A program made the translations under genes and the position numbers. A stretch of 64,000 nt of DNA from Haplodiscus bocki (lineage: Eukaryota): the NCBI GenBank assembly GCA_965655095.1, contig OZ296649.1, forward strand, positions 35,464,001 through 35,528,000, in the 5' to 3' direction. The notes beneath the pieces are model-generated. The model saw only the letters and a program-made list of their open reading frames with translations. It did no database searches and was not told where the DNA came from. Below, piece by piece: positions 1-61,759 of the stretch (the stretch's first letter is position 1; each line of letters starts with the position of its first letter).

Positions 1-1104
1 CACCTCGGAACTAAGATAGATTATCTATTTTTCCAAAGCTCGAGACTCCTCCAAGCGACGGAAATACAGCTCCTACAGAACCAATGTGAACAAGAGCGTA
101 CCCAGATCCTCACTAACCTGATGCTCGCTCTCGAGAATCCCCGATTAGCTGGCTATATGCTAACAGGAAACAGATCCATGTTCCTAGAAACAGACGGCAG
201 CCTTGCCTGGCTTTATCACTGTCCGAAGGTCCACTCTCCACTTCATACGATGAATCAGTGCTATGATAAGATACCTATACTCTACGAAGGTGAAATACGC
301 TTTGTTGACCCGATTACACGACAAACTTACCCTGATGCTGTTCAGCAAAATTGTTCAGATCGAATCAAGAACCTCTTCCAACTCGATATGGACCAAGAAG
401 ATTCCTGGTACACACTCACGCCTGGTATAGTACACCAGGACCGACCCGCTATCTTTGGACCTAAGAAAATAACACCGATGTCTGCGCAGTCTCTCAATGG
501 ATCACAGGATGCCGGCATGTATACAAGAAACGAACTCCGCGGCTTCTGGGACAACATTCTCATTAATGCCGCTTCAAGAACTGCGTTGAAAAAGTTCTCC
601 CAAAACTTGATTATTTACTCTAATTCGCCGGAAGGATCTGACGGATTCCACTATTACACTCCAAGGACTGAATTCCATGTGGATAAGATGATATCTCCAG
701 AATATTTCAAAGATCGATTCATGGATACTTTTGGACCAGTCGCATATTTCCTCGAGCACTGCGGAATCTACTTCTTCGTGTTTTTATTTTTTAAACTTAT
801 AATAGATGTTGTGGTTATGGTAATACGCCACTTAGAAATCTCTAGAATGACCGGTGCATCGCTTGGGTTCGGTAAGACCCTACTTAGTGCGTCGTACAAT
901 ATCTTTCTCACGTCCGTCTTGACTTCAATGTATGATCCACGCGCGCCTCCGCTTGCCGCGATGACGCAAGAAGAAATAACTCTTTGTCATGAGGAAGAGC
1001 TACATGATATGAGAGACACTCCTAAGAAAAAGGAGGAGCATATTTACCCAATCATGAGTCCGGCCCAATTTAACAAAGCCGTGACTCCAATTTCTCCAGT
1101 CTAA
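1..1104 (+). CDS. env: Envelope glycoprotein, class III fusion type (herpes gB / chuvirus G-like); 5'-truncated by the window edge
   Basis: Frame is open from base 1 (HLGTKIDYLFFQ...QNQCEQERTQILTNLMLALENPRLAGYMLTG...DGSLAWLYHC...QCYDKIPILYEGEIRFVDPITRQ...NC). The long helix with Cys, NP motif and C-Y-x-x-I-P / F-x-x-P-x-T-R pattern resemble gB/chuvirus glycoproteins. C-terminal TM segment (GIYFFVFLFFKLIIDVVVMVI) and cytoplasmic tail. Confidence 0.75.
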   Translation, partial: HLGTKIDYLFFQSSRLLQATEIQLLQNQCEQERTQILTNLMLALENPRLAGYMLTGNRSMFLETDGSLAWLYHCPKVHSPLHTMNQCYDKIPILYEGEIRFVDPITRQTYPDAVQQNCSDRIKNLFQLDMDQEDSWYTLTPGIVHQDRPAIFGPKKITPMSAQSLNGSQDAGMYTRNELRGFWDNILINAASRTALKKFSQNLIIYSNSPEGSDGFHYYTPRTEFHVDKMISPEYFKDRFMDTFGPVAYFLEHCGIYFFVFLFFKLIIDVVVMVIRHLEISRMTGASLGFGKTLLSASYNIFLTSVLTSMYDPRAPPLAAMTQEEITLCHEEELHDMRDTPKKKEEHIYPIMSPAQFNKAVTPISPV

Positions 1105-1126
1105 GTTTATCTTAATTCTTTTTTAG

Positions 1127-1747
1127 GCCCAATTACATTCAATCTTTCCCCCGTGTGACGATTGTCTTTCAGTCCTTTCCGACCCAGAAGACGATTTCCG
1201 ACCTCTTACACCTTCTGGCTTGGATCTTCCTACTAGCTCTGAAGTCACATTCTTATCTCCTATTGCCCCTTGCTCACAGATACCGTCTAATCCAGCTTCG
1301 CCTGATGAGCCGCCTTCCCTCACTTTGCTTTCGACTAGTCAGCCCCCAACTATAAACACTGACGTGGCTCCTATATTAATCGGCTCACAACTCCCAATAT
1401 CTTCACCCGAAGTTAGCCGATCCGAAGATACTTCAGAACTCCCTCCCTTTAGTTCCATTCTTTCTGACGTTCGACCTCTTTTATCACGGCCTAATCAACT
1501 CAAACTTAGACCTGATTCCGCTGTCTTGGGACGTCAACACCGCCGTGAATATTATACAAACCATGCACGCAGGATAAGACGCCCCCGCTTTAATCAACAA
1601 TTACAATACTGCCTTAAGCCAGAGTTCTGTAGGTGGGAAATAATCTTTTGGGATGGCAAACGTCAGGAGTATACAATTCAAAACACCTTTCTTCCCTCTC
1701 AGCGATTGGTAGTTCCACCACAAGCCATCACCGCACTTCCTCATTAA
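1127..1747 (+). CDS. Accessory ORF-A of the retroelement (Ser/Pro-rich N-half, Arg-rich C-half), no ATG; probably a spliced exon
   Basis: The frame of track ORF 1220..1747 is open back to 1127, immediately after cttaattcttttttAG (1111-1126). It contains no in-frame ATG. Its stop TAA (1745-1747) overlaps the next ATG. Confidence 0.5.
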   Translation, partial: AQLHSIFPPCDDCLSVLSDPEDDFRPLTPSGLDLPTSSEVTFLSPIAPCSQIPSNPASPDEPPSLTLLSTSQPPTINTDVAPILIGSQLPISSPEVSRSEDTSELPPFSSILSDVRPLLSRPNQLKLRPDSAVLGRQHRREYYTNHARRIRRPRFNQQLQYCLKPEFCRWEIIFWDGKRQEYTIQNTFLPSQRLVVPPQAITALPH

Positions 1748-3126
1748 TGTCGCTTAACCCTCTTGCGCCAGCTTTCCTCCCGCGTCATCAATCTTCATCT
1801 GACCCACCTCTTTCGTTATGCAACTCTAATACCATGAATCTTCCTCTGGCTCAATTAATTTGCGGAATGCCTCCACAAATTACTCCTTCTCATGCTCCTT
1901 CTATTAACCAACACATTGCTGACAACACTCTCCTCCTTCCTCTTCTCCAACCGATAAATCAGTTTACGAAGGACGCTGCCGCTTATAAATCAACTCCCGG
2001 ATCCTCAACACCCCTGCCCTCATCACTCCACCACCAGATGAAATGTCTCCAGGCAATTAACAATAGCATCCAACAGTTTAACCAACACTTGAAGGCCGAG
2101 AAACTAGACAGACAAATTTTACAGCTCGTTGTCCTTCAATTGCAAAATGACTTGGCTGTATTGCGCTACCTGCTCTCCTCCTCGACTGGGACAATCCCCA
2201 ACAAGGATGTTACCGTTAAAGACGCTGCTACTAGTCCTTCACTTGATATTACCGCTAACCCTAACCCTAATGCTAACCCTAACCCTAACCCTAGCTCTCA
2301 CTTTCCTTCCGCTTTCTCGCTTCCCGGCCCTAGAGCACCGACACTTCGCTGTTCTACCCCGGTGGGCGCTGTGGGGACAGCTAAAACAAAAACAAACAAC
2401 ACTGCAAACAACGATTTCCAACCCATACCCAACACGCAAGAAACCACGATACAGAACCTCACATCAAGAATTTGCAAATTGGAAAAACTGTTTGCCAATG
2501 AGGTATCAATGTACACATCAATCACTGCAGGGGTCCATTCTCAGTACTTTTTATTATGTGATAAAATTCGCCAGCTTGAACCTGGCAACTCAGATGTTAT
2601 TATTTGGAAAATCCCCTCAGTGAAGTTTGTCTTCGACTCTGCAAAGGTGGCCCGACCATCATCAGATCCACTCATCGAGCCAGCTACAAGTTTTAGCAGC
2701 CCCATCTTCAGGACCCACCCGCATGGCTACAATTTCTTCATCAAACTCTACCCGTATGGTATCGGACCCGCTACGGGTAAGTGTGCTTCGGTTCTATTCG
2801 CACTCTTCCCGGGAGGCTATGACAGTCTTCTCCAATGGCCCTTCACAAAGACTATTCATATCGGTATTCGAGACCAGCTGGACCCAATGAATACTTGGAC
2901 GAAGACAATCCTACCCGACCAACACCCAGCTTACAAGAAGCCAACAATGTCAACAAAAACTGGAGTTGCAACGATCCTAATCAATAACTTCATTCCCCAC
3001 TACAAACTCTTTAGTGAAACTGAAGGTTTTCTAATTGATGGTGCGAGTTCTGTAGAAATCAAATTTTCTGCTCCTCCTGTGCTGAAACCTCACATCCAAA
3101 CTTCCCTCCTTTTTCCTTTTCCGTAG
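1747..3126 (+). CDS. RING-less TRAF-like protein: PAM2-like N-terminus, coiled coils, C-terminal TRAF/MATH domain (459 aa from first ATG)
   Basis: About 2596-3066 encodes VIIWKIP...FSSPIFRTHPHGYNFFIKLYPYGIG...SVLFALFPGGYDSLLQWPFTKTIHIGIRDQ...AYKKP...FLIDG, matching the TRAF-C consensus (WKI, SPxFYT, GY, YDxLLxWPF, DQ, FKKP). Preceded by a heptad segment LTSRICKLEKLF...KIRQLE. First ATG at 1747; no introns. Confidence 0.88.
   Translation: MSLNPLAPAFLPRHQSSSDPPLSLCNSNTMNLPLAQLICGMPPQITPSHAPSINQHIADNTLLLPLLQPINQFTKDAAAYKSTPGSSTPLPSSLHHQMKCLQAINNSIQQFNQHLKAEKLDRQILQLVVLQLQNDLAVLRYLLSSSTGTIPNKDVTVKDAATSPSLDITANPNPNANPNPNPSSHFPSAFSLPGPRAPTLRCSTPVGAVGTAKTKTNNTANNDFQPIPNTQETTIQNLTSRICKLEKLFANEVSMYTSITAGVHSQYFLLCDKIRQLEPGNSDVIIWKIPSVKFVFDSAKVARPSSDPLIEPATSFSSPIFRTHPHGYNFFIKLYPYGIGPATGKCASVLFALFPGGYDSLLQWPFTKTIHIGIRDQLDPMNTWTKTILPDQHPAYKKPTMSTKTGVATILINNFIPHYKLFSETEGFLIDGASSVEIKFSAPPVLKPHIQTSLLFPFP
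2255..2293 (+). repeat. (CCCTAA)n telomere-type hexamer run inside the TRAF-like ORF, encoding ANPNPNANPNPNP
   Basis: ctaaccctaaccctaatgctaaccctaaccctaacccta. Confidence 0.85.
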
Positions 3127-3154
3127 AGCCCCTCAATCATTTTCACTTCCCTTT

Positions 3155-3164
3155 GAGCGGGGTG
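3155..3164 (+). other. Polypurine tract of the left LTR element
   Basis: gagcggggtg about 30 bp after the TRAF stop, directly followed by AGTTA. Confidence 0.65.
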
Positions 3165-4548
3165 AGTTATCGCGTTATACTTAACGCTTAAACGTTAATT
3201 AATTAAAAGATGATAAATTAAAGCTAACCTTTTGAAGGGACACTGCTGATGTTGTCGTAGGGCATAGAAAATGAATAAAAAAGCTGGAGATATAAACCAA
3301 TGGAGTTGCATAAATATTTTTTATAAAAAATTCTAACGCGAGCTTTTTTCCTATTGGCTCCTGCTGCCAATTCATGGCTGTTACAAGCTTTTTTCCTATT
3401 GGTTGCATGTCATGACAGCATGATGTTATTTTGGAGTCGATCTGGGAAACGGGCTTGAACATAACTCACTTTCCCGTTCAGCGGACGGGACGCCTTACTC
3501 CTCTTCTGACTTGCTTACCTTACTTCTCCCTTTCACTTGGACAAAATTATTCTAGGTCCAACTCCTCTTCTCTCTTCTCTCTTGGAGAAAATTTTCTAAG
3601 TCCAATTCCTCTTCTCTCTCCTCTTGCACGAAATTATTCTAAGTCCAACTCCAATTTTACAAAGATTTTCTAAGACAATTCTAAATTCTGTCTTAGTCGC
3701 AAAACCAATTCAATTCTACAAAATTTTTCTAAGACAATTCTAAATTCTGTCTTAGTCGCAAAACCAATTCAAATCTGCGAAAATTTTCTAAGTCCCAGCT
3801 TTCTTCTGACTTAGAAAAATTCCCTTCCTTTCATTTACCTTTTACATACTCTTGCCATTGGAGTCTAAACGATGTCCACTGACGCTAGCTTCGGCATTGG
3901 CGTGTGCGGGTTCCGTGGATGAACTTATGTTCTGAAGCTTGAGTGAATCTTAAATATGCACGACCCCCCACGAGGTTCTTAGGCAAAGAGAATTGACATT
4001 ACTCATAGATCATTCTCACCTCGTCTGCTTCCATGGTCTTTAGAATTTATTCTAAATTCCGAGTTATGGATTAAATACGCAGAAACCGTCCCTTCCTGAT
4101 TCCCATAATTCCATTCTTTGCTTTGATTTGAAATTTCCTACTCAATCCTTTCGCAAGTCAGATTCATAAGAGGAGAGTCCCTGAGTTATCAACAGATCAT
4201 CCAGTCCCATCGACGGTAACCGTTAGTTAAACAGTTTTCCTAGTTCAGACAGAGTATATCTCTCTGATCAATTTTAACATTTCATAAATCCCTTCCGTAA
4301 CACCCGCTAGACAAAGTTCTCGGTTGGAAAGAAAGGGACTAAGAAAATATCACCAGGTTACCGCCACAGAGCGAGTTATCACCTGAGTACTAGACAAAAT
4401 TAGAACAAATCAAACCCCGCCAATAAATCCGGTGACTTAATCACGGTTTGGGCAATCGGGAAAATAGGAGCACAACCGGTCGCTACGCTGAAGCCAGTAC
4501 CGAGTGTAGACCAAAGTACAAAAGGTTACATATAACATAACGTTAACT
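3165..4548 (+). repeat. Putative 3' LTR (~1.38 kb) with AGTTA...TAACT termini
   Basis: Starts agttatcgcgttatac; ends tataacataacgttaact (imperfect inverted termini). Contains repeated ttttcctattgg (reverse CCAAT) motifs, tandem repeats and aataaa near 4422. The partner LTR is not in the window. Confidence 0.6.
3530..3800 (+). repeat. Tandem repeats in the LTR: three ~45 bp units then two 59 bp units
   Basis: aaa(a)ttattctaggtccaactcc-like units at about 3543, 3588 and 3631; ttttctaagacaattctaaattctgtcttagtcgcaaaaccaattcaa at about 3666 and 3725. Confidence 0.8.
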
Positions 4549-5823
4549 AACAAAATAAAACAACAAAAAGCCAAAACTTCCCTAGAAAACAGGCCCAGAA
4601 AAACTAGAAGAACAAAAGTCTTCTATCTGGCCTACAGAAAAAAGAACTACTAGACATTACTTTACCTCCAAAAATTATCTCCATCAGTCATTGAGAGTTT
4701 TTATAAATAATATCTTACATTTTGTCATTTGAAATTTGTATGTCTTTTGATATTTTGGACTGATTTTATTTATACCCAAAAAATTGGAGATTTTATAATT
4801 TTCACATTATATCTTGATCGTTGCATAATTTGCGATCTTCATTTTTTCAGATGATTACATTTCTCGAATCTTCTGTCGTGGGTAAAAGTTGAATTTATGC
4901 TTGTTGGGGCTGTTTAAAATAAAGGGATTTAATGTTGAATCGTATAAGGGAAATGTTTTGTAAAATTGTATTTCAATAATAATTTTTGTTACTGCTGCTA
5001 AAATTATTCAAAGGGAGACTGAAATTTCCCTCGTTCCCACTTTTGCTACTATCACTAATGCGTGAATCATCATCCATTAGCGCAGTCCTTTCATTTCCCA
5101 TTTGATTATATTTGCTTCCCCGGTTGACTGAATAATTGATTATTTCATTTTCTATTTTCCCCTCATCGCTCATAAAGTCCTTGCTTTGAACTTACGCAAT
5201 CTTTGTTCGCGAGGCCTGCAAGGCACCTGAGAGTAGATCAATAAAAGCCCCTGAGACTTATTTTCATTAAACAAAACAACTGCTGCGGCGCCACGGCTGT
5301 ATTGATCTAGCTAACAAAAGGAATACTAATCACCTGCAGCACTCAGCTAGGAAGAAAATTGGAACTAGAGAAAGAATTAAATTCAAGCATTAGTAATATA
5401 ATGTTCCCCCCTACTCGGCCTGCGACAGAGTCAAGACTTCTACCAGTATGCAACTTGAGGAGTATGAAATACAATATTACGCATGAAAAATGCAAAACTA
5501 TGAAGGTAGATTTTTATAGCTGCCACGATGGGAATAAAAAACATGCATTTTTTTGAAACGCATAAAACAAAATCCGATCAATACGTTGATAACAGCTTTA
5601 TCTCATGGGCTGGATACTTAATTTAAGTACAAAAACTTTTCACGACATCTGATTTTTTGAATAAATCATAAATGGAGATTCATAACAGAACTGTCAGCAG
5701 TAATTTCTGGGAAGAGCACAAATACTAGGTCTTAGAAACTCCTATTGCAGTCTTTTGTTTATAGATAGTTTTAGTTTTATGAAATGTTATGGGGATGATG
5801 GTAAAACGGTCCCGCACACCCAC

Positions 5824-5952
5824 CTCTAACTTTTGATCGGAACTCTTCTGGTTTGTGGAGGTAGAGAGCAGCTGCGTCCCCGTTCAGAGGGTCTTGTGCA
5901 TTGGGGTACGTCAACAAGTGAGGAAGAAAGACTTCAAAGATATTGGACAGAT
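5824..5952 (-). CDS. UBE2H: UBE2H coding exon 6
   Basis: tttcag|AT CTG...AGA G|gtgggt; (D)[42 protein letters not shown]. Confidence 0.93.
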
Positions 5953-6179
5953 CTGAAACATCAGATGAACAATAGAAATGTTGAAACACAAAGATTTCCA
6001 ACAAAGAAGTTTCTCATTGATCTTGTACCCAACCACTTTTAGTAAACAAATTTGATACATATTTATCTCCATATGTAAAACTCAAACAGCATGGTGCTGT
6101 TGCGGTGCTGGATTAACCCGATTAACTTCAAGCTATCTCAGAAACTTCCAAAAAGCTTAGTTTATTATTTTCCACTCAT

Positions 6180-28418: not shown

Positions 28419-31400
28419 AATTCCAAAACAATTCAATTTCACCCACATTAAATCTTGATTGATCACTTTTCAAAGCGCCTCGATGCCTAACTGGCATTTT
28501 CAGTGCCAAGAAATTGAGGAATTTCAGGCGTGAAAAGATGAAACCCACCACGTTTGGGTCTGAAGACTCGCATCTCAGGAAAACTGCGGTGACACACCGA
28601 AATTCTCCCAAAGTCACCGTTGCAATGGTTCATAAGACGAGATGTGCAATGGTTCATACGACGAGATGGGAATAGGTCAATTAGAGACCTATACAGAGGT
28701 ACAGGACTGAGGAAAGGAATTTCGAGAGCTCATGCATTTTTCCGACAGTACTTTGTTAAGCCCTGCTCTTAATCAACCAAAAGGTGATTTTTCAAAATTG
28801 TGCGAAAAGAATGGACCAATGAAACGAATTGCACTGATCACCATTGAAACGTAAAGTTAACTAGCACACAGGCCGCTTTAACCAGTGAAATACACTAGTT
28901 AACTGATCGTGACTTAACTAAATCTCACCGTGCATGACTTTAAGCACCAAGAGAATTAACAGTGCAGCACCTCAGTATTCTAGAAAACTATGATGAGCCT
29001 TACACGCATGGGTAAATTCAACAAAGATTCACCTGGTTGTCTTACATTTCTAGAAACTTTTGAGGATGAAAAAAAGTTCTCCAACTAGGTTAGAAACGGA
29101 AGGCAAAGTAAACTTTAACGGTTCGTACACGAAAAACTCATGCACCGCTATTACTTGATTTTTCACCGGAAAGCGCCAGCCTTCCCTTGGATCTATGATA
29201 GAACATTCAAACAATTTTACGCTGAATCGTTAATACATCTGATGTAGCAACATGCGTAAAACGTGAACTAGAAATCCAAATTGAAAAATTTGACTTCATT
29301 TTTGAGTATGACAATTGAATTAGCATTTTTTCGGCACATAATTGAGCACTTTGGCTATTACATTACATTGACACCTCAAATTGAAGCGCAGTTGATTAAT
29401 GTCTGATGCAAAACACCTTCAGTGTTGACTTTTCCTGAGAATGAACAATATCGTTAACAATTATAAGTGAGCTAAAAGCTTCGTGTTGGTTATTTTCCCA
29501 TGGGTGGTTTCCCCAAAATTTAATGTCACCATGTCTGCTTTGAAACACAAACGTGATCGCTCGGTGTCTTCGTGAAGCTGTTCCTCAATTTAATCAAAGC
29601 TAAGCAATTTAGGCAAACTATTTTCATATACGGAGGGCTAAGGTTCTAAGGGCAGGCAAACGCTAGGTAAATCATTTAAGTAAACGTGAAGCACCATTGT
29701 ACCAAATACTAAACCTTGAGAAGCCACCGTTTAATCTCCGCCATTCTGTCAGCGGAAAACGACTTGAACACATCGGCGACGAATTGGAAGGTAACTTTTC
29801 GACCTTCCACTCAAATACGGATAAGTCAAAATATTCGAGTTTTGTACTATATCAGGATGTAAAGATTCACATGTCTCCTTCAGAAATGATATTTGTTCCT
29901 GATTCTATACTACTCCAACGTATATATTCAGTCAGTTCGTCAATTGAGTCGATAGTGCTTTTTCTACTCGAACCAAATCGTGAGAAAATGAAATTAATTC
30001 ACTCCAAAAACTGAATACTCAGTTGAAAACGACCCTTCCAACGACTTCACTGATTTAGGTAGCAATGCAAACGACCGGTAACCAGTCAATTCATCTACAG
30101 ATCGTTTTTTCAAAAATGGCATTGCTGTCTCTTGAAGATAGTTGCTCCCGGAAGACCCCTATTATCATTGAAAAACTAATATCATGACTTTGACTAATAG
30201 TTTCACGCGAAAGATAGCATTGCTTCCAAAAGGATATTGCCAATAGAGTCCATCCCGGACGAATCCCTACCTTCATCGTTGTTGTTTCTGAAGCTTCCAA
30301 TTCATTAGCGAGATAAAACTAAAATCCAGAACTGCGATAATGAATGATGTCATAGCGACTTCCGTTACGTTTGGAAACTAGCCAACTCCGCTACAGTGGG
30401 AAACTACAGCTCAGTTTTTCACCAAATTCTAATCGGTTCATCTCCATTTTCATCAACCTTTCCAGCCAACGTGGTCTATCAAGCGTTCTCTTCACGGTGC
30501 TTATGTCATCATCAGAACTGCTTCAACACTAACAATATAGCATGCAAAAGTGTTTTGACAAAATATGCATTAAATAAAAATCATCTCATCTGACGAGAAA
30601 GCTATAACTTTCAATTTTGTCTTTTAGGAAGGAAAAACTCATGAAAAAGTCCATTTAGTGTATTTATCTGATTCTTGTTCAAGGATATTTCGATGCGATA
30701 GAATGTAAATAAGAGTCGCAGTAGCGCAAAACTTTCATCGCAGCGGCGGCACTAGGAAAATCATACGATCAATACACTTGTTTCAATTGAATGTTGAAAG
30801 AGTCACGCTCTTATTCAGTACTTCGAAATAATTTCGTCAATTGAATCCAACTAATTTGTAATTAACAGGATAGGTCTCAAAGTATCAATATTAATAACCC
30901 CATAAACAATAACCAGACATTTAAAAGGAATCAAGGTATCCAGAAGCTTTGATGACTTCGTTCACTGCCGTTATTTTGAGAAGGGTAAAACTCATTCTGC
31001 TTGGATCGCTTCTACAACTTTTCTAATCATCTGACAGCGTGATAAAAAACGAAAGAAGAGCATAAAATGACGCAAGTCCACAAGCATGCCTGTACGCATT
31101 CTTGATCAGCACGCTTTAGGGACCGGTTTTAGCATAAGAGTGAATTACTAAGAACTTTTTTTCATTTGAAACCACGCAAAGGAGCATTTTAAGAAGACCT
31201 TTTGCTTTGAAATCAAACCAACTAGATTTCGAAAATACAGGCATCGAGAATCCCAAGCATTAAGTGGGTATGAATTTAGAAGGGTAAAAAACGAAACTGA
31301 GAATTTCAGAAAAATTTGAAAAAAAACACGGAAAGTAAGACCCGAAATAAAAGTGAGAAATTTGACAAGTTCTACTTCAACACTTCAGGTAATTGAAGGG

Positions 31401-34400
31401 CAATAATGACATTGACTCGAGCAGGAGGAACGCAGAGAAATTTAACAAACCTATGATAAAAAATAAGAAAAAATTGTTCCGCTTGACTATATCTCTCAAT
31501 CAGTCAGTCAAAGATTCCCAAATCGAGAAAAAAAATCTATAGGCCTAACCTTGTCAGCATGATGCCTTAATATTTTGGACCTACGGTCCAAAATTTAGTG
31601 ATTAGCACCGTTATGCGTCTACAAAAAAGCAAAGTTTTTTAGGTAACACCCTTTGCGTATTCCGAACCTTGAGGGCAGCGCCGATTTTGAGCACTCAAGT
31701 CTCTGCCTAACCATACATCTACAGTAGCTTCTTTTTGGGTAGTCAGGGGAAAATAGATCAAATTGGATGTACTTTTTTAACCTGCACTTTTGCAACTTGC
31801 CAATTTCAAAGTCAAAAAGACTGGTAGGAAAGTGGATGAAAATTGTTCAACCAGGCAAACTATGTCTTAATAAGACAATTACGGCAGTCACAACTCTTTA
31901 CTCAGACCAGATGCCAAGGGAAAACTCCTCAAAATTGATGTTCAACTGACGGACCGTCAAGCAAACGGTGAGCAGAATGACCGCCACCAAATCCGAGTGA
32001 ATCAAAACTAAGATGTCCGGTCACAACGAGAGGAATTCGTTCCGTCCGAAACGGAAAGAGGTCATCGGCAACCAGTTCAGTCAAACTTTTCTAGCAGTAG
32101 GAACCGAGGATTACGGTCAAGTAACAACAAAGGTAGTGCATTAATCCAAATGAAGGGAGCCTTAGAACCACCTAAATAAGTTAAGCCTGAAGCCGAAACA
32201 AATGTCCGAAAATCTGAATTCATTTTCATGACTGAATTGAACACATTTAATGAAAAGATGGCCCGGGCAATGACCCCATTTCAACTCCCATTGGAATTAC
32301 AGAGAAGTAACGATGACCTTATACCTCATACCTACAACAGATTTCAAAACCCGACATCTACGAGATTCGGCATTATATTCAGAGACCACAAGGTGGTACT
32401 GACGGTCATTTTACGTGAATGGATGCTGAGCGTCTTACAATTCCAAAACAATTCAATTTCACCCACATTAAATCTTGATTGATCACTTTTCAAAGCGCCT
32501 CGATGCCTAACTGGCATTTTCAGTGCCAAGAAATTGAGGAATTTCAGGCGTGAAAAGATGAAACCCACCACGTTTGGGTCTGAAGACTCGCATCTCAGGA
32601 AAACTGCGGTGACACACCGAAATTCTCCCAAAGTCACCGTTGCAATGGTTCATAAGACGAGATGTGCAATGGTTCATACGACGAGATGGGAATAGGTCAA
32701 TTAGAGACCTATACAGAGGTACAGGACTGAGGAAAGGAATTTCGAGAGCTCATGCATTTTTCCGACAGTACTTTGTTAAGCCCTGCTCTTAATCAACCAA
32801 AAGGTGATTTTTCAAAATTGTGCGAAAAGAATGGACCAATGAAACGAATTGCACTGATCACCATTGAAACGTAAAGTTAACTAGCACACAGGCCGCTTTA
32901 ACCAGTGAAATACACTAGTTAACTGATCGTGACTTAACTAAATCTCACCGTGCATGACTTTAAGCACCAAGAGAATTAACAGTGCAGCACCTCAGTATTC
33001 TAGAAAACTATGATGAGCCTTACACGCATGGGTAAATTCAACAAAGATTCACCTGGTTGTCTTACATTTCTAGAAACTTTTGAGGATGAAAAAAAGTTCT
33101 CCAACTAGGTTAGAAACGGAAGGCAAAGTAAACTTTAACGGTTCGTACACGAAAAACTCATGCACCGCTATTACTTGATTTTTCACCGGAAAGCGCCAGC
33201 CTTCCCTTGGATCTATGATAGAACATTCAAACAATTTTACGCTGAATCGTTAATACATCTGATGTAGCAACATGCGTAAAACGTGAACTAGAAATCCAAA
33301 TTGAAAAATTTGACTTCATTTTTGAGTATGACAATTGAATTAGCATTTTTTCGGCACATAATTGAGCACTTTGGCTATTACATTACATTGACACCTCAAA
33401 TTGAAGCGCAGTTGATTAATGTCTGATGCAAAACACCTTCAGTGTTGACTTTTCCTGAGAATGAACAATATCGTTAACAATTATAAGTGAGCTAAAAGCT
33501 TCGTGTTGGTTATTTTCCCATGGGTGGTTTCCCCAAAATTTAATGTCACCATGTCTGCTTTGAAACACAAACGTGATCGCTCGGTGTCTTCGTGAAGCTG
33601 TTCCTCAATTTAATCAAAGCTAAGCAATTTAGGCAAACTATTTTCATATACGGAGGGCTAAGGTTCTAAGGGCAGGCAAACGCTAGGTAAATCATTTAAG
33701 TAAACGTGAAGCACCATTGTACCAAATACTAAACCTTGAAAAGCCACCGTTTAATCTCCGCCATTCTGTCAGCGGAAAACGACTTGAACACATCGGCGAC
33801 GAATTGGAAGGTAACTTTTCGACCTTCCACTCAAATACGGATAAGTCAAAATATTCGAGTTTTGTACTATATCAGGATGTAAAGATTCACATGTCTCCTT
33901 CAGAAATGATATTTGTTCCTGATTCTATACTACTCCAACGTATATATTCAGTCAGTTCGTCAATTGAGTCGATAGTGCTTTTTCTACTCGAACCAAATCG
34001 TGAGAAAATGAAATTAATTCACTCCAAAAACTGAATACTCAGTTGAAAACGACCCTTCCAACGACTTCACTGATTTAGGTAGCAATGCAAACGACCGGTA
34101 ACCAGTCAATTCATCTACAGATCGTTTTTTCAAAAATGGCATTGCTGTCTCTTGAAGATAGTTGCTCCCGGAAGACCCCTATTATCATTGAAAAACTAAT
34201 ATCATGACTTTGACTAATAGTTTCACGCGAAAGATAGCATTGCTTCCAAAAGGATATTGCCAATAGAGTCCATCCCGGACGAATCCCTACCTTCATCGTT
34301 GTTGTTTCTGAAGCTTCCAATTCATTAGCGAGATATAACTAAAATCCAGAACTGCGATAATGAATGATGTCATAGCGACTTCCGTTACGTTTGGAAACTA

Positions 34401-36461
34401 GCCAACTCCGCTACAGTGGGAAACTACAGCTCAGTTTTTCACCAAATTCTAATCGGTTCATCTCCATTTTCATCAACCTTTCCAGCCAACGTGGTCTATC
34501 AAGCGTTCTCTTCACGGTGTTTATGTCATCATCAGAACTGCTTCAACACTAACAATATAGCATGCAAAAGTGTTTTGACAAAATATGCATTAAATAAAAA
34601 TCATCTCATCTGACGAGAAAGCTATAACTTTCAATTTTGTCTTTTAGGAAGGAAAAACTCATGAAAAAGTCCATTTAGTGTATTTATCTGATTCTTGTTC
34701 AAGGATATTTCGATGCGATAGAATGTAAATAAGAGTCGCAGTAGCGCAAAACTTTCATCGCAGCGGCGGCACTAGGAAAATCATACGATCAATACACTTG
34801 TTTCAATTGAATGTTGAAAGAGTCACGCTCTTATTCAGTACTTCGAAATAATTTCGTCAATTGAATCCAACTAATTTGTAATTAACAGGATAGGTCTCAA
34901 AGTATCAATATTAATAACCCCATAAACAATAACCAGACATTTAAAAGGAATCAAGGTATCCAGAAGCTTTGATGACTTCGTTCACTGCCGTTATTTTGAG
35001 AAGGGTAAAACTCATTCTGCTTGGATCGCTTCTACAACTTTTCTAATCATCTGACAGCGTGATAAAAAACGAAAGAAGAGCATAAAATGACGCAAGTCCA
35101 CAAGCATGCCTGTACGCATTCTTGATCAGCACGCTTTAGGGACCGGTTTTAGCATAAGAGTGAATTACTAAGAACTTTTTTCATTTGAAACCACGCAAAG
35201 GAGCATTTTAAGAAGACCTTTTGCTTTGAAATCAAACCAACTAGATTTCGAAAATACAGGCATCGAGAATCCCAAGCATTAAGTGGGTATGAATTTAGAA
35301 GGGTAAAAAACGAAACTGAGAATTTCAGAAAAATTTGAAAAAAAACACGGAAAGTAAGACCCGAAATAAAAGTGAGAAATTTGACAAGTTCTACTTCAAC
35401 ACTTCAGGTAATTGAAGGGCAATAATGACATTGACTCGAGCAGGAGGAACGCAGAGAAATTTAACAAACCTATGATAAAAAATAAGAAAAAATTGTTCCG
35501 CTTGACTATATCTCTCAATCAGTCAGTCAAAGATTCCCAAATCGAGAAAAAAAATCTATAGGCCTAACCTTGTCAGCATGATGCCTTAATATTTTGGACC
35601 TACGGTCCAAAATTTAGTGATTAGCACCGTTATGCGTCTACAAAAAAGCAAAGTTTTTTAGGTAACACCCTTTGCCTATTCCGAAACTTGAGGGCAGCGC
35701 CGACTTTGAGCACTCAAGTCTCTGCCTAACCATACATCTACAGTAGCTTCTTTTTGGGTAGTCAGGGGAAAATAGATCAAATTGGATGTACTTTTTTAAC
35801 CTGCACTTTTGCAACTTGCCAATTTCAAAGTCAAAAAGACTGGTAGGAAAGTGGATGAAAATTGTTCAACCAGGCAAACTATGTCTTAATAAGACAATTA
35901 CGGCAGTCACAACTCTTTACTCAGACCAGATGCCAAGGGAAAACTCCTCAAAATTGATGTTCAACTGACGGACCGTCAAGCAAACGGTGAGCAGAATGAC
36001 CGCCACCAAATCCGAGTGAATCAAAACTAAGATGTCCGGTCACAACGAGAGGAATTCGTTCCGTCCGAAACGGAAAGAGGTTATCGGCAACCAGTTCAGT
36101 CAAACTTTTCTAGCAGTAGGAACCGAGGATTACGGTCAAGTAACAACAAAGGTAGTGCATTAATCCAAATGAAGGGAGCCTTAGAACCACCTAAATAAGT
36201 TAAGCCTGAAGCCGAAACAAATGTCCGAAAATCTGAATTCATTTTCATGACTGACTTGAACACATTTAATGAAAAGATGGCCCGGGCAACGACCCCATTT
36301 CAACTCCCATTGGAATTACAGAGAAGTAACGATGACCTTATACCTCATACCTACAACAGATTTCAAAACCCGACATCTACGAGATTCGGCATTATATTCA
36401 GAGACCACAAGGTGGTACTGACGGTCATTTTACGTGAATGGATGCTGAGCGTCTTACAATT
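28419..36461 (+). repeat. Head-to-tail tandem duplication of a ~4020 bp unit
   Basis: 28421-32440 and 32441-36459 are near-identical (about ten differences seen); identical short ORFs recur at a 4019-4020 bp offset. Confidence 0.97.
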
Positions 36462-46695: not shown

Positions 46696-49058
46696 TTACA
46701 AAAATTCTCGTTTCACTTCAGATTTAAATTGAATGGGGTTTGTAGTTATATCCATCGACGTCTTTTCTTGAATAAAGTTTGCATATTTGCTAGCTCGGAA
46801 GAAATTATGTTCACTCTTCTTTTTATTTGTATATGGAATATCAAAGGTAATCGAATCGTTACTCCGCAGAGAATATATAGAAGGTAATTTAGCTGTAATA
46901 TAATCACTGACAGGAAAGTCAAAGCCACCATTAATTAATTTGTTGAACATTACAACAACCTTTTCTATGGCATGTTTAATCGGAAGCACTTTCAATATCA
47001 AGAGGCGATTTTGGTAACCAGTTGCAGAAACAGCCCAGCGAGAAACGCATTTTTGGAATCTTTCCAGTTTATCTAAATCGCTTTTTGACGGATACCAAAA
47101 TTCTGAGGCATAAAGAAGTACTGGTAAAATGAAAGTCTTATATAATTTTGATTTCAAGGAAATATTAAGGTGAACTGGAAGATTAGGCTTCAGCTGATGA
47201 AAGGTATTGTAACAGGATTTTAAGCACCAAGTGAGCTTGCAGAAAACATAAATTCCTAGATCTTTAACGAATTCAGATGAATTATTTTCTTTTTCGTTGA
47301 AAAGTAGAGGTGAGTGTGGTTCTTTTCCAATAAACAAAAACTGAGTCTTAGCAGCATTAAATTGCATCAAGTTTATTTTCGACCATTCAACACAAGAATT
47401 TAAATTAGATTATAAGCTCGGCATGGAATTACATATCACTTTATTGTCGTCAGCATACAAGAAAAAAAACGACGAGTTACATACATCTGGAAGATCGTTA
47501 ATGAAGATCACAAATAATAGAGGCCCTAATGAAGAACACTGCGGAACACCGCTTGCAACTGAGGCATGTTCACTGAAAACATCACCAACTTTAACACATT
47601 GATAGCGGTCAGATAGGTAAGAAGAGAAGAGTTTTAATAGTCCACAACCGATACCAAACTTCCTCAATTTGTCAAGCAAAAAAAAATGAGGGACTTTATC
47701 AAAAGCCCTGCTAAAATCCAAATAGCAACAGTGAGCTGTTAAATCGTTGTCGTGTGAAAGATATAGTTCATCCAAGAAAACTAGAAGTTGTAAATTGGTA
47801 GATTTGTTTTTCAGAAAGCCATACTGATGTCGATGAATTTTGTTGCAAAATTTTCGTCAATTAAATGAAATAAAATTTGTTCAAAAGCAAGCGACAATTT
47901 TGACTGTATACCGATAGGTCTATAGGAATTAATAAAGTTACGCGGACCACTCTCGTATACTAGTCTGATGTGCGACATTTTACAGTTTGATGGGAAACAT
48001 GAGGTTTGGGTTAAATGAACGAAAAGTTTCAATACAAGGAAACAATTGTCCGAAGCACATGAAGAGAGAAATGAACCCGGAATTCGATCCAAACCACAGC
48101 CCTCTTTTGTTTACCACAATGCAGAATACACAGCAGAGAAAGTTATAAGAGCACTGTTGAAAAAGTCTTCGGAAAAGTCACCATAAACATGAGCTGGTTT
48201 CTCAAAAGATTTGACAAAGTACGCATTAAAGGCATTAGCTATAGTAATAGGACAATCAGTTAGAAGTTTATCTTCACCAGGCAAATAAAAAGACTGCGTG
48301 AGGCTGTTAGATTTCAATGCGTTAAGGAGTCTAAACGAACCGTGAAGACCACCATTAGACTGACAAAATTGTTCCAAAAAGAGATCAGTATCTAATTTAA
48401 TGGACTCTTCGTAATCTTTATCCAATGAATAAGGATAATTAGATTGAGACTTAAGGAATTTTCGGTAGTACCTCCGAAAAAAAGACCATATCAAATCAAG
48501 CATGTGATTACTATTATGGCTGAGGCGGTCCACTATTAGATGAAAATTTTGTTCTAGCAAAAAGTCAATGAGGGAGCAAAAGCTAACGTCACGTGTGTGA
48601 TACGATTCAGCTTCAAAATCAGGTTGATTGGAATCACCCATAATAAGTGTTTTCGTGCGTTCAAAGCTACGGAGAAGGGATTCTAAGAACCTTTTAATAT
48701 CAAGTGGATTAACACGGTAAGGACTAATTTTAGAAGGATTGTAAAAAATAACAATCAACAGAGGAAACCCCAAATTGATTACGGCAGAACAACAAAAGTC
48801 AGTTTTGACAGATATAGCGTTCAAAGAAATACCATTCCTTCTAATAATAGCTGTACCTCCATGACTTCCGCTTTTCCGATCAGTACGACTGCCAACAATA
48901 TACTCGGAAGAAATAAAAAGGTTAACATTCAAGGAATTGTCTGAACAGGTCTCTGTTAAACATGAAGAATCAAAATTATGAGAATGCGCGAAGGTAATAA
49001 GAGAAAGACGTTTTGAAAAACTTGCTATACTTCTGGAATTTAGCAGACCCAGTTTCAA
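46696..49058 (-). pseudogene. LINE ORF2 (APE endonuclease + reverse transcriptase), disrupted
   Basis: LLNSRSI, CLTET, RTDR..GGTAI, MGDSN, LDL (APE); YRPI, YLDFSRAFDKVPH, SGVPQCSSLGPLLFVIFIND, YADD, KDLGI (RT), split over four ORFs. Confidence 0.92.
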
Positions 49059-49067
49059 AGTAAGTAG

Positions 49068-49790
49068 TCAATCAATGCTCACTAATTGATTTTCATTGTA
49101 GAGTTTCAATCCTCTAATCTTTAAGTGTTTTTTATCGACTCCATTAATATTGATCAAATCATAGCGTTTCGCTAACAACTTCTTTTCAATGATCTTGTTT
49201 TCGCGTGATAATTCAGGGAGCACAAGAATCTTGTCCGAAGTGTACAGCTTGCTTTTCAATGCTTGTGAAAAACAAATCCTTTTATCCCATACGTTTCTGA
49301 AGTAAACTAGGATAGGGCGCGATTTGTCGTTGTCATATTTACCAAGGCGACGACACTCCGATATTTCGACCGAACTGCCAATTTTTGTCAAAATGCTCTC
49401 AACATCTTTTTTTTCAATTTCTTTTCATTGGGGAACTTGACGTCATTTTCTGGCAATCCAACAACTTTTAGCTGGAGTTCATGTTCATCGGTTTTCAAAT
49501 TCAAATCATTTTTCGGTGCATTTACATGTACCGGTGCAGGGGAAGCAAAGGAGCACGACTGATTGGAAGCTGAGTCAAACTTTTTGGCTATACTTTCTGT
49601 TTTTGCTTGAAGATCGTCAATTTTTTCATCAATCTAGATAGCGAAGAAGAGAATGATTGGGCTTCACAAAGATGAATTACAGTATCTTTAAGAAGGTATA
49701 ATGACCAATGTTTTGTAAGTTCTTCGGTTAGAGCCTTGAATTGCTCACAATCACTAACAGACTTCACCATCTCATCAACCGTAATAACCT
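49068..49790 (-). pseudogene. LINE ORF1-like protein, disrupted
   Basis: ECRRLGKYDNDKSRPILVYFRN motif typical of CR1/L2-group ORF1; directly upstream of ORF2. Confidence 0.7.
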
Positions 49791-57286: not shown

Positions 57287-58861
57287 TCCCCCCGCTGGAA
57301 CCTGAAAAGTATTGATGAGTGGAGAACGCAAACAAAGAAGACCAAAGAAGCAGGTCAAGAGCTTCAGGAGAGCATAAATTTATGGGTATAGTTGCAACGT
57401 CCGTTTTCAGTAAGAAAACCGTTTGCTTAACTAGGTGTGCACAAAGGGCAAGGCAGGTGATTGTCGTGTAGCTCCTGCAAACCGGTCAACCCACTGTGGT
57501 CATTAGCTGCTCGATGGACTGGTTGTGTGAACACTCGTTTAATATTCTTGACAAAGGTTATTAGGCGGGAAGCAGCAAAAGCTTCGTCTGTCGTGGAACC
57601 CGTCTTGTCCTGTGCAGGTGCGCATGAGGGTGTTGGCGTATTGGGATAACGTGGCCGTATCTCCAGAATTTTTACAACGATGATAATGATAGAGAGTATC
57701 ATCTGGAGTAGAGGCAGCAGACAGGTCAGTGCGCAAAGAATGAAGATTTGACTGCAGCAGTTTGCTTAGCGCTTTGATTAGGAGTTGTCTGCATGGCTCA
57801 ACCGAGTGCGCAAAGAGTGGATCTCCTCAGTTTAATTAAAGGAATCTTTCATGAGACTGTTATGGGTAGGGCTTAGATCTTGCTAGGAAACGGGCAGCCG
57901 TTGAACATCTGTGGTAAACTTGTCTTTGGACGTATGAGCATCAATCAAGGCCTTTTCAGATTCGGAGTACATATCACAGTAGATATGGCTTCTTGGCGGT
58001 CTTCCTTCAAAGTGGTCTCAGTTTGGTTAAGTGACGAAAATTCAGTGTTAAGATTAACCCATGTGTAATGAGTGGTTGTTCTGTCGAAGTCTGCCCGGAC
58101 AGACACGTCAATGACTTCTGCATCAGCCTGTATAGAAGTGTCCTCGACGTCGGGCAACACAGCAGGAAGAAAAGTTGTGGGAAAAAACAGTTGTCGGAGA
58201 AAAAGTTAACCGAGTCCGCAGATTCTGCAGTGGGATTCTGAGGGCAACTTAATTTGGTGAATCGAACGCATCGGGCGATACCGCGTAATACCTTTTTTGA
58301 ACGTAGACGGTGTCAGACTCAAAGCGAACCTTAGTGACACGGTTCTGTAGGTTTTTTACTGAGAAGACGTGATCGTTGACGGCAAAAGGGTGGACGCGAC
58401 GAGAACTCGTGAGGACATTCGATTGAACTGCGGGTGGACAGTTGAAGAAGTTGAAAGACGACCTGAAACAATGGGACGAATACATCAGGAGAAAAATACT
58501 TAGAATTAGATAAGTAATCGTAAATAGGACATAAGAAAAGAGAAAATAGTGAAACTTGCATACAGGAACGTATGTTAAGCAAGGATAATGTCATGAAGAA
58601 GGGGACGTGAGCATGAAAATGTGGTTTGAAGTGCTGAAAAGCGTCTGGATGAATGGCACTAAATCATGCCAAGAGCACTGGTATGGAAAACCAGAGAACA
58701 ACGTCGAAGATCTTGAACTCGGAAACGTGTTGGAAGGGCATCACGAAAAGTGATGACAAGAAGTAAAAGAGACTGGTAAAGAGGAAGGGGTATAGTAAGG
58801 TGACTGTTTCATGTGGAGGTTTCAGTATAGATAGAAGCAATAAAGGAACGGTACAAAAGAT

Positions 58862-61000
58862 TCAACGAAGGAGTATGTTTAGAAAAGTTAGTATGAGGAG
58901 GGGCGTTCTCATGGGGGTGCGTAGAATGAAGAAAAAAGTTCGGGTTGACAGAAAGCGTTTGATGTAGGGCTGCCTGTGCAAGAGCCTGTGGAGCCTGGAC
59001 TTCAGAAACAGAAAAGTAATGAAAAGAAGATTCCTTTTCGGTGTAAGGATTGCCTTCCACAAAGTGCATAAATCGTCTCGAGGTGCCACGGAAGAAGTTT
59101 CGGGGTGCGTGAACAACCGCCTCCACTGTCGGAGAAAAAGCGTGAAACCAATGCACAAAGTCAGGACTGAGAGGGCGATGGAGATGAGGTAAAAACGGAC
59201 TGCTGTGCGGGTAGGGAGACAGGAGAACAGAGCGGCTGATGTGGTTTGAGGTATGGATGACTGACACTGTGCGATGGTTCGAGTGAGTTCAACAACGGTA
59301 TCACTAGACATGCGCTTAACGTTAGAGAGTTCTGCTAAGTCAAGGCAAACACTACTGAGGATGGATTGACATGCTTCATCAAGAGAGTACCTGAGAAGAT
59401 TGTGAGTAGCCTGGCGAACATGTTGGACGAATTGTTCGAAGGGTGGTGTAAGCTGGATGGAGGCGAGTAAAGGCTCCAGGTTGGTTTTGCAAAAAATGAT
59501 GATGAGTTCCAATGCTCCTTGGTTAAACAAGAGTGTACAGAAAGTAGAGAAACCAGTACCACTATCAATTTTCATTCAAATATTACGGTCACGAGAGATA
59601 ATACGATATATGCCATCAGCTGAACAGAAGTCTCGAGGGGCGTCCTGTAGGACAACAGATTCAACTTTACAATTACGAGGGACAGGAATGTCGTTTTTTT
59701 TATAATAGAAGGAAGGCAAAGAAAGAAGTGTTTCGTCAATTGTAGTGGAAAAAAATTGACGGCAAACTTTAGTGAGATTGCTTCTTGAGTGTCTTTGAAG
59801 ACTGAAAGCGCTGAGTTCAACGAAATGAGATTTATCGGTGGAGACTGCATCAAAGGTGTTCGGAAATTGGTACAGGGAAGCCGCATCGCCATCGTCGTTA
59901 GGTTGGTAAGGAGGAATTCCTTGAAAGATATTGCAGGCCTCTATGGGATTTTCAAGGACAGCAGAGGTACCCGTGGAAAGGAAAGCGACTTTTAAGACCA
60001 ACTGAGCATCATAATAATAAATTGCTTCTTGGCCGGTACGGATAGGAGTGGAGTGTTATCACCCTCGCATGGACTCGAAATTGACGAGCTCTTTCGATAA
60101 CATAGCCAACTGACAGGAGACGAGAAATTGAGATGTAACGTAACCAGCTTTGAGTGAGGAGGTTGTGGAAAAGAGGACAATTTTGTCTCCAAATTAATCG
60201 GCTCGGTAAGCTTATATGTTTGTGTACAGTGTTCCCAAATGATCCACGTGGTTTCGGCTCTGCCGAACAAAGATCATATTTTGTGTGAGGTGTACAGTGC
60301 CTGCGGACAATGCAACAGTTACGCCTTTAAATTCAAGTAACTCAGTTTGAAGGAGTTTCTACGGACCACCACATTTTTCCGTTACTTTCTGTACACTTTT
60401 TTATGTATTTCTTCAGTTCCCAGAATAAACAACTTCTCGTCGTTCTTTGTCCGTACCCATTCCAAAAAACCATGGAAGTGTTTTTGAATCGACATAACTT
60501 GGCCAAAAATTGCTTCCAGATCTTGTTGTTGGTGCAAAGATTAAAATTGGAGAGAGCTGAAGGTGCAGCTTCTTTCATTGGATTTCCATGAACCAGTCCT
60601 GTGGCACCTGCGGCCGCAGCTACTAGTTGCACTGCACGTTTGCTGCGGGCTGTGCCATGCTCATGCTTCGCAAAACTAGGCAGAAACCTCGGCCAAATGT
60701 TTTTGATCTGTGTGTGCAGCCTTGATCTCTTTTTGTATCAGGGAAAATATTACCATCCATCTGGTCAATTAGTTGGTCATATAAAGTGCCCATGCGCTCT
60801 GTTCAACAATGTCTGATTGTAGCCATGCCAGTCATCGAGTCGGTGTTGCCTCGTGTATGAAGAACTGCATAGTCACCAGTTAATTTGATCAAGGGAATCT
60901 TGGGGAACGGTGAAAACACACGAGCCTGGTTCTTACTCTCTGGCTTTATTGCCTGTTACTTGAAATAAAATGCAGCACATTTCCTAAACAAAAGTTTGTC
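58862..61000 (-). pseudogene. env: Envelope glycoprotein, class I fusion type (baculovirus F / errantivirus / paramyxovirus F-like), frameshifted
   Basis: Furin-type RSKR (60647-60636) followed by AVQLVAAAAGATGLV; Cys-containing ectodomain fragments; TM FYLISIALSVLTLCIGFTLFL followed by RQWRR. Confidence 0.7.
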
Positions 61001-61759
61001 CTTAGCTTCGCTGAAATGGGTGGTAAAGTGAAGATCTGCGAGAAGACCACGGAATGGAGCATAGGAAAGAAGTAGAGACAAAGTGGCTTGTCACGGCTTC
61101 TGACGTGCAAGGCTCCTGAAGAAACGGAATACCAGGAAATGACTCGGCACTGATAGTTGGCTGTGACGAAGTCTTAGTGCGGGCTACAAACATTCAATGG
61201 AATTCCGATTTTTTGGATTTCTTTGGGGACAAAACGCCAATGAGATCGCGTGGTTAACGAGTTTCGTGGAGTGGTTCCACTTTGAGTTGGACTGTTGTGC
61301 TTTGTCGAAGAGTACGTGCGGGAGGGCAATGTAGATTTTGGCCAGCTTTTTGAAGATGGCGCTTAGCCTTCTGGATGATGCTGTTGACAAGGAAGAGACA
61401 AAGTTCGATCGATGGGAGGCCGTAAACTAGCCAAAGCACGGTTGTTCATCAACAGACGGAACTGAAGTTGGTTCACAAAGGAAAGTAATGGGTGGGGACG
61501 ATGTTTTTGCCGGGATGTTGGAGGCATTCGAGGAATCAAGCGAAGACCGCGGAGACCTGAAAGGACGTGAATGGGATATAATCGAACCAGCAGGGCTCGA
61601 TGGAGGGGGCGGTTTTTTGGGGAAGGTACTAGGCAAGTTGGCGGCACGCTGCAAGAAGATTACAACACAAAGATCGTGGTTAATGGGCCTTGAAGGCTGC
61701 TGCGTCGGGTTTTTTCCGTTGACAGGTTGATGCTCGGGTATGCTAGTTGGGCGAAGAGG

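Follow-up and report, generated by a model that had tools for sequence, protein, structure and literature searches.

Giant Gypsy elements of planarians, known as Burro/GYPSM1, occur in thousands of copies, show env homology (matches to mononegavirus fusion proteins) and carry a MATH_TRAF_C domain, which in Dugesia tigrina lies in an accessory open reading frame (ORF) with BIR and BCL2-like domains; these domains have been proposed to meddle with apoptosis and ubiquitination (PMC6431247). Giant Gypsy elements with both an env and a TRAF-type MATH domain are therefore on record, and the remark in a preliminary description of the DNA studied here that no such case was known does not hold in the broad sense. 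A TRAF-like gene is listed in adinto-like viruses (PMC8502044), and the available text of PMC12440569 and PMC12846552 added no precedent. Here, we analysed a 64,000-nucleotide stretch of the Haplodiscus bocki genome (contig OZ296649.1, positions 35,464,001 to 35,528,000; hereafter the window), of which positions 1-5427 are the 3' end of a recent, 19.7-kb, env-bearing Ty3/Gypsy-type element whose last gene encodes a RING-less TRAF. When a long terminal repeat (LTR) element has captured a host gene, the case usually rests on a single copy or a few, without a donor or an expression route; here, the DNA reveals the donor subfamily, the selection, the splice and a signal for translational coupling, and the captured gene carries a motif that the donor lacks. 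In the reading favoured overall, to which a probability of roughly one half is assigned, the TRAF would be a trans-acting trimeric adaptor joining an MLLE-domain protein to TRAF-domain partners.

The features of the element in and next to the window are as follows.

1..1104, + strand: 3' part of env, a chuvirus/Monjiviricetes-type fusion glycoprotein gene that starts upstream of the window in L021
L021:8630: splice donor, ATGGTTGAG/GT (the slash marks the exon end)
1105..1126, + strand: splice acceptor (polypyrimidine tract and AG), ending a 2,496-nt intron that contains env
1127..1747, + strand: ORF X, 206 codons, an ATG-less second exon
1745..1749, + strand: TAATG stop-start, where the ORF X stop overlaps the TRAF start codon
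1747..3126, + strand: captured RING-less TRAF ORF, open, 459 aa
1747..1785, + strand: PAM2-like motif at the TRAF N-terminus (aa 1-13)
2020..2184, + strand: first coiled coil (aa 92-146); its homologue in host RING-less TRAFs is the FPLxN..YLH block
2434..2571, + strand: second (TRAF-N) coiled coil (aa 230-275), ratio of nonsynonymous to synonymous substitution rates (dN/dS) 0.16
2596..3069, + strand: MATH/TRAF-C domain (aa 284-441), dN/dS 0.11-0.12
3127..3167, + strand: U-rich tract and plus-strand primer position, with a conserved part, GGTGAGT, that resembles a 5' splice site
3168..5427, + strand: 3' LTR, 2,260 bp, with TAT...ACA ends
5428..5431, + strand: target-site duplication GAGT, 4 bp, repeated ahead of the 5' LTR

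The preliminary description had recognised an intact 459-aa ORF with a coiled coil and a TRAF-type MATH domain, and this is borne out by profile matches to TRAF-mep_MATH (PF21355, E 3.7e-16) and MATH_2 (E 2.5e-14), by the best sequence matches in PDB (TRAF4/5/3/2/1/6) and by a Foldseek search with a model of the protein, in which TRAF1 ranked top (E 9.5e-14). In the model, the N-terminus and a linker between two helices (92-146 and 230-275) are disordered, and the MATH domain follows at 284-441; the mean pLDDT of 62.8 is low owing to the disordered parts. Hydrophobic residues occupy 12 of the 16 a/d positions in the first helix and 8 of 13 in the second, and the first coiled coil is strongly diverged in the window family. 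The absence of a RING and zinc fingers, likewise reported before, was reproduced, with no RING or zinc-finger profile match in residues 1-280 and just six scattered cysteines there. Of the hallmarks of the TRAF family, a MATH domain of TRAF type after a coiled coil is thus present, and the RING and zinc fingers of TRAF2-6 are missing.

Copies were searched for in the 1.5-Gb assembly carrying the window. All 92 candidates scored (of 4,957) were element copies with 91-100% identity, most of them without stops. The env-TRAF-LTR order is multi-copy and siblings carry TRAF, as the preliminary description anticipated for an accessory gene: five of six siblings fetched contain gag-pol-env-TRAF (the sixth lacks gag-pol), and all four elements fetched from other families agree with this gene order and have paired LTRs as well as 4-bp duplications, identity being 73-88% in pol and 32-67% in TRAF. 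At least 1,149 exact matches to a degenerate TRAF start pattern (control 0) and at least 2,183 occurrences of the 16-mer at the 3' junction (control 1) were counted. In a sample not selected by TRAF, for which element ends were paired by coordinates in the first 77 Mb of contig C1 (99 junctions), 44 junctions belonged to long elements and the TRAF start pattern was in place in 35 of them; of the remaining nine, one belongs to family D and is known to carry TRAF. Short elements accounted for a further 26 junctions, none with the start pattern, and 29 had no primer-site match, so that short gag-only derivatives make up 26 of the 70 end-paired elements. Three short elements fetched were gag-only derivatives, one retaining ORF X and the tail of TRAF and one retaining part of ORF X. 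Such non-autonomous derivatives (L179, L180 and L181) are abundant and have internal regions of 2.7-4.9 kb.

Selection was estimated in a main set comparing the window copy with 20 of 20 subfamily B loci, for which intact frames were not selected; loci in the selection tests were ranked by similarity to a query. In this set dN/dS was 0.23 for TRAF, 0.12 for its MATH domain, 0.23 for ORF X and 0.08 for env, compared with wrong-frame values of 1.02 and 1.48 for TRAF and 1.29 and 1.74 for ORF X; a 300-nt LTR control gave 0.63, so for that stretch the simple counting method does not centre on 1. Against one B element, pol and gag gave 0.07 and 0.09. Among pairs with intact frames (16 A, 12 B and 13 C loci; 20-25 random pairs each, the pairs not being independent), TRAF values were 0.29 for A-A, 0.23 for A-B, 0.45 for B-B and 0.17 for C-C. 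The ratio is therefore far below 1 across copies, as previously suggested for this gene, and both TRAF and ORF X are under purifying selection. Together with the multi-copy state, these values identify the TRAF as a maintained accessory gene.

A donor subfamily can be traced in the host. Two low-copy genes on contig C5, L092 and L093, encode two coiled coils and a MATH domain. L093 reads as two exons, of which the first is short and contains half a zinc finger. In both genes an intron interrupts MATH close to its end, a site that the elements run across unbroken. One relative groups with RefSeq proteins from the acoel Convolutriloba macropyga (XP_075250303-6), the grounds for regarding the host as acoel-like; the longest isoform of these proteins gave no RING or zf-TRAF match, and a single-protein search for TRAF relatives returned 13 hits, all acoel-type. 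In a tree of 27 rows (outgroups: one host gene and three unnamed MATH domains; row P0154 assumed to belong to this genome), all seven rows from elements fall into a single clade (100/99), which an 87/94 branch places with the RING-less TRAFs, apart from the zinc-finger TRAF on contig C8. With a profile of the host first-coiled-coil block, the E-value was about 1e-18 for families C, D and E, 0.17 for family A (window copy) and 1.5 for family B, and the C8 locus was not matched. At the DNA level, the element TRAF originates inside the acoel RING-less TRAF subfamily. Since this subfamily is itself RING-less, the RING was missing before capture, and the earlier argument that the protein acts like a RING-deleted, dominant-negative TRAF loses its basis. 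The idea that a host TRAF mRNA was captured holds with respect to the traceable donor; as for the route, capture via spliced mRNA is plausible, because both host paralogues have a MATH intron that the elements lack. Gag and TRAF fragments of the element family were also seen inside an intron of the host zinc-finger TRAF gene on C8 (L110:1634-4387). A separate high-copy family of RING-less TRAFs (P0285, P0287 and P0288, with 104, 9 and 14 members) is absent from this genome (best match 42-46%), has no PAM2-like start and is not sister to the window elements in the tree; it is possibly an independent TRAF capture. A metagenome scan for the genomic context of the P0287 family gave one weak match of 36 residues.

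The start of the TRAF differs from that of its host relatives. The sole Pfam match of the first 24 aa is PAM2 (PF07145, E 0.01, 15.9 bits), and PF07145 matches three of the five family starts (the window copy and two of four others) at 13.9-16 bits. A PAM2 sequence pattern is present at the starts of families A, B, C, D and E and in none of 20 host-type or other relatives, and the motif is kept across families that are just 32-38% identical to the window TRAF. In A-B pairs, dN/dS is 0.12 over the first 13 codons, 0.36 over the next 77 codons and 0.53 in the linker. By these comparisons, the TRAF has gained a PAM2-like motif that is not in host relatives. PAM2 motifs bind the MLLE domain of UBR5. 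A genome search for MLLE gave one match, in an exon followed by HECT-like sequence, which reads like UBR5/HYD; the exon preceding it (L173:2-424) contains a PAM2-like stretch by eye, with no Pfam score, a stretch of this kind being a feature of UBR5. The PABC/MLLE domain of PABPC1 is likewise bound by PAM2 motifs (bioRxiv 10.1101/2025.10.09.680815). The N-terminal motif is a strong lead, and it is moderately likely to be a working PAM2 that would bind an MLLE domain, either in poly(A)-binding protein (PABP) or in the HECT ligase UBR5/HYD.

The 642 nt between env and TRAF are not a spacer but a conserved coding exon that holds ORF X in all families examined. The ORF X protein has an acidic start, a Pro/Ser-rich middle and a conserved basic C-terminal domain, and profile searches against Pfam and PDB gave no match; a weak lead to ETS (0.81) was provisionally rejected, as it found no support in these searches. 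ORF X opens immediately after a T-rich tract and AG, and its start is supplied by a three-codon upstream exon; before env, this exon reads ATG-NNN-NAG/GT in four families (A, B, D and E), whereas family C has ATGGTGGAA/GT. The acceptor AG is present in 33 of the 34 unspliced loci that matched (40 examined). The predicted junction occurs in 13 genomic copies, eight of them exact (reversed control 0), a family C copy has an equivalent join, and all eight A/B spliced copies fetched are gag-pol elements from which env is removed at the predicted sites. A GT-AG splice therefore removes env and links ORF X to the three-codon start exon. In a tree built from 46 copies, six changes are needed to account for the spliced state, at least three of them forced by starred branches; its origin was thus repeated, in keeping with reverse transcription of spliced RNA. 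Loci L033 and L169 were considered as doubly spliced RNAs; no GT-AG join was seen at their upstream junctions, and they are read as deletion or gag-only derivatives.

The stop codon of ORF X overlaps the start codon of TRAF, in the variants TAATG, TGATG or ATGA. An overlap with a stop was found at 63 of 64 TRAF starts, or at 35 of 36 when the 28 ATGA cases that follow automatically from Met-Thr are left out. Overlaps of the UAAUG/AUGA kind drive reinitiation in caliciviruses and influenza B, and the long interspersed nuclear element (LINE) SART1 also reinitiates (PMC10275272). It is quite likely, judging from the conserved overlap, that TRAF is translated from the spliced RNA by termination-reinitiation at this site. 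A TURBS (termination upstream ribosome-binding site) was rejected as a candidate: TGGGA lies 98-101 nt upstream in five of five sequences checked, but it is dictated by Trp-Asp codons. Four matching sequencing runs, none recorded as RNA, contained no GT-AG among the 15 joints listed of 478 and allow no conclusion on expression. Structure prediction of a complex of TRAF aa 85-445 with the C-terminal part of ORF X scored 0.00 and gave no answer. Neither ORF X and the splice nor the stop-start overlap and the PAM2-like motif had been noticed in the preliminary description.

In the mechanism that we favour, the spliced RNA with its start exon joined to ORF X would be translated into ORF X and, by reinitiation, into TRAF; the N-terminal PAM2-like motif would bind the MLLE of PABP or UBR5, and the coiled coil and MATH domain would form a trimer. 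The resulting adaptor would tether the partners of host RING-less TRAFs, or new targets, to PABP-coated messenger ribonucleoproteins or to UBR5, and the outcome might be a blunted host stress/defence response or an advantage for the element RNA. That the predicted protein trimerises via its coiled coil and MATH domain and acts in trans as an adaptor is conceivable at slightly under even odds. If the motif does bind MLLE domains, the element would encode an immune adaptor made into a handle on PABP or UBR5, offering a direct test of transposon counter-defence in a deep-branching animal.

Several points weigh against this reading. The PF07145 scores lie below the Pfam cut-off of 20 and two of the five family starts have no match, the sequence pattern occurs at any position in 208 of 10,000 shuffles (2.1%), and the motif is without an acidic residue that many PAM2s have. 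Within subfamily B the first 13 codons give a dN/dS of 0.75, at few sites, and part of the constraint on the start codons may act on RNA, since these codons overlap the putative reinitiation signal. No PABP MLLE was found in the genome search. The 87/94 branch placing the elements among RING-less TRAFs is unstarred, with long branches flagged. The spliced copies are proof of splicing of the genomic RNA, not of a dedicated subgenomic mRNA, and the gag-only derivatives without a TRAF start show that TRAF is not needed in cis.

A plain signalling decoy, the model of the preliminary description, in which the coiled coil and MATH domain compete with host TRAFs for receptor tails or form dead mixed trimers that damp NF-kB or cell death, the N-terminal motif being incidental, would fit the strong selection on the TRAF fold, the host zinc-finger TRAF gene available as an interference target and the combination of MATH with BIR and BCL2-like domains in Burro elements (PMC6431247). 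Yet the donor had no RING to lose, and the N-terminal motif is retained across the most distant families, which leaves the decoy an unlikely explanation. Moreover, the last MATH strands (SVGILHF in host proteins), presumably a peptide-binding edge with a conserved Gly, are replaced and vary among element families. Still less probable is a trimeric scaffold that serves the element's own RNA-protein particles, possibly with ORF X, and has no contact with host signalling. Its tight translational linkage to ORF X, the divergence of host-type surfaces in families A and B and the link of PAM2 to RNA granules speak for such a role, but gag-only derivatives spread without TRAF in cis (which is neutral for a role in trans), and TRAF-binding motifs, searched as sequence patterns, number none in Gag, Env and ORF X and three in the 1,846 aa of Pol.

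It is very improbable that the gene is a neutral passenger, that is, a host retrocopy caught near the 3' LTR and amplified by hitchhiking. Its dN/dS is higher than the 0.07-0.09 of pol, gag and env, and the 0.45 within subfamily B points the same way; the open frames and the low MATH ratio at a dS of about 0.7-0.8, the retention of TRAF in families with only 32-67% identity and the conserved stop-start coupling all argue against it. The adaptor thus remains our preferred reading.

With regard to the rest of the element, the viral glycoprotein ORF reported before TRAF is corroborated by matches of PF24664 (Monjiviricetes fusion protein) to window positions 1-1104 (E 2.5e-26) and to the upstream part (E 1.6e-11); the env frame is broken shortly after the signal peptide in the window copy and is open in six of six siblings checked. 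The 3' LTR, formerly thought to end at 4548, extends to 5427: it differs from the 5' LTR (L022:3726-6030) by 8 mismatches in 2,260 columns and one 45-nt gap, and this near-identity, with GAGT at both ends, sets the LTR at 3168-5427 and shows that the element is 19.7 kb long and recent. Sibling insertions are also flanked by 4-bp duplications. Both pol and a matching 5' LTR, the absence of which was to count against a retroelement, were found upstream, and the gene order is gag, pol, small ORFs, env, ORF X, TRAF. The pol gene is an open frame of 1,846 codons with protease, reverse transcriptase (RT), RNase H and integrase in this order by profile matches, the protease match being weak (E 0.016); a macro-like domain lies between protease and RT (L021:172-5712; Pfam Macro E 0.0011, under the cut-off). 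Gag matches Retrotrans_gag (E 2.1e-7). The top PDB matches of the RT are Ty3 RT (E 1e-32 to 1e-33), before foamy virus and other RTs, in a comparison with PDB and not a tree. LTR ends are TA...CA in families A, B, D and E and TG...CA in family C.

A conserved TGG-starting site follows the 5' LTR, with at least 2,391 exact 15-mers in the genome (control 0), and no tRNA matching it was found in six loci. The TRAF stop lies 28 nt before GAGCGGGGTGAGT, which adjoins the LTR, in agreement with the roughly 30 bp first given for the distance to the polypurine tract. The tract itself stands in part: the plus-strand primer site is purine-rich in the window copy and is not purine-only in three other families, GGTGAGT alone being shared. 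At the end of this position (window 3161-3170), GGTGAGT is a perfect 5' splice-site sequence. Small ORFs lie between pol and env (L021:5814-8611) and before gag (L022:6417-6758), several of them abutting stop to start; compared with one element of family B, the chain has dN/dS of 0.08-0.31; it matches no Pfam family and constitutes further accessory genes. Head-to-tail elements with one common LTR were seen at L028, L040 and in pairs about 18 kb apart.

Elsewhere in the window, a second, degraded Gypsy-like element occupies 57300-64000 on the minus strand, with RT remains, Integrase_p58_C (E 4.4e-7), a macro-like stretch similar to that in the pol of the window element and an env-like region with an RSKR site and no Pfam match; it has no TRAF, ORF X or env similarity to the window family. 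A tandem duplication of about 4,020 bp with 99.75% identity at 28419-36461 may be genuine or may stem from the assembly. At 46696-49424 on the minus strand there are decayed frames of a LINE-like endonuclease and RT, and a minus-strand frame at 5777-6004, 350 nt from the LTR end, resembles the end of a ubiquitin-conjugating enzyme, with a likeness to UBE2H.

A literature search, with Repbase, most subscription papers and supplements outside it, brought up no paper describing this lineage or its splice, and none in which a retroelement protein has a PAM2 or PAM2 is fused to a TRAF. Among comparable systems, the acoel RING-less TRAFs (XP_075250303-6; L092 and L093) share with the captured gene two coiled coils, a MATH domain and the lack of a RING, and are TRAF1-like in architecture; in the host genes, however, MATH is interrupted by an intron, zinc fingers are reduced to one remnant at most and the start is not PAM2-like. 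In complex retroviruses (HTLV pX, HIV tat/rev, foamy bel), a small start exon ahead of env is spliced to one that lies after env and before the 3' LTR, and several small accessory ORFs occur. The window element resembles them in a pre-env start exon spliced past env and in small accessory ORFs, and differs in that its RT and env class are not retroviral and ORF X matches no family. We tentatively raise the possibility, which is on balance doubtful, that this Gypsy lineage independently evolved a complex-retrovirus-style cassette, with the TRAF as a trimeric PAM2 adaptor hijacking PABP/UBR5 and made by reinitiation with a Tat/Rev-like ORF X, and with a second, perhaps independent, TRAF capture (the P0287 family) elsewhere.

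Caliciviruses, influenza B and SART1 share with the element a UAAUG/AUGA overlap near the RNA 3' end, and LTR elements are not named among the reinitiation cases in the available text of PMC10275272. Anakin, a Bel/Pao element of mosquitoes, uses a chuvirus-type glycoprotein as env, as the window element does (PMC7642597), whereas the RT of the latter is nearest Ty3 among solved structures; the abstract on Anakin mentions no host-derived accessory gene (PMC7642597). Burro, finally, is alike in being giant, Gypsy-like and high in copy number, with env homology and a TRAF-type MATH domain, and it has MATH, like BIR and BCL2, in or upstream of the ORF1 polyprotein and env in frame between gag and pol (PMC6431247). 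In the window element, by contrast, an intron encloses env as an ORF of its own, TRAF comes last in the gene order, coupled to ORF X, two coiled coils are kept, the host donor is traceable and the start is PAM2-like, features that set it apart from Burro as described; no BIR, BCL2 or ankyrin match was found in the element ORFs scanned. Taken with Burro, the window element suggests that TRAF domains have been repeatedly useful to large env-bearing Gypsy elements.

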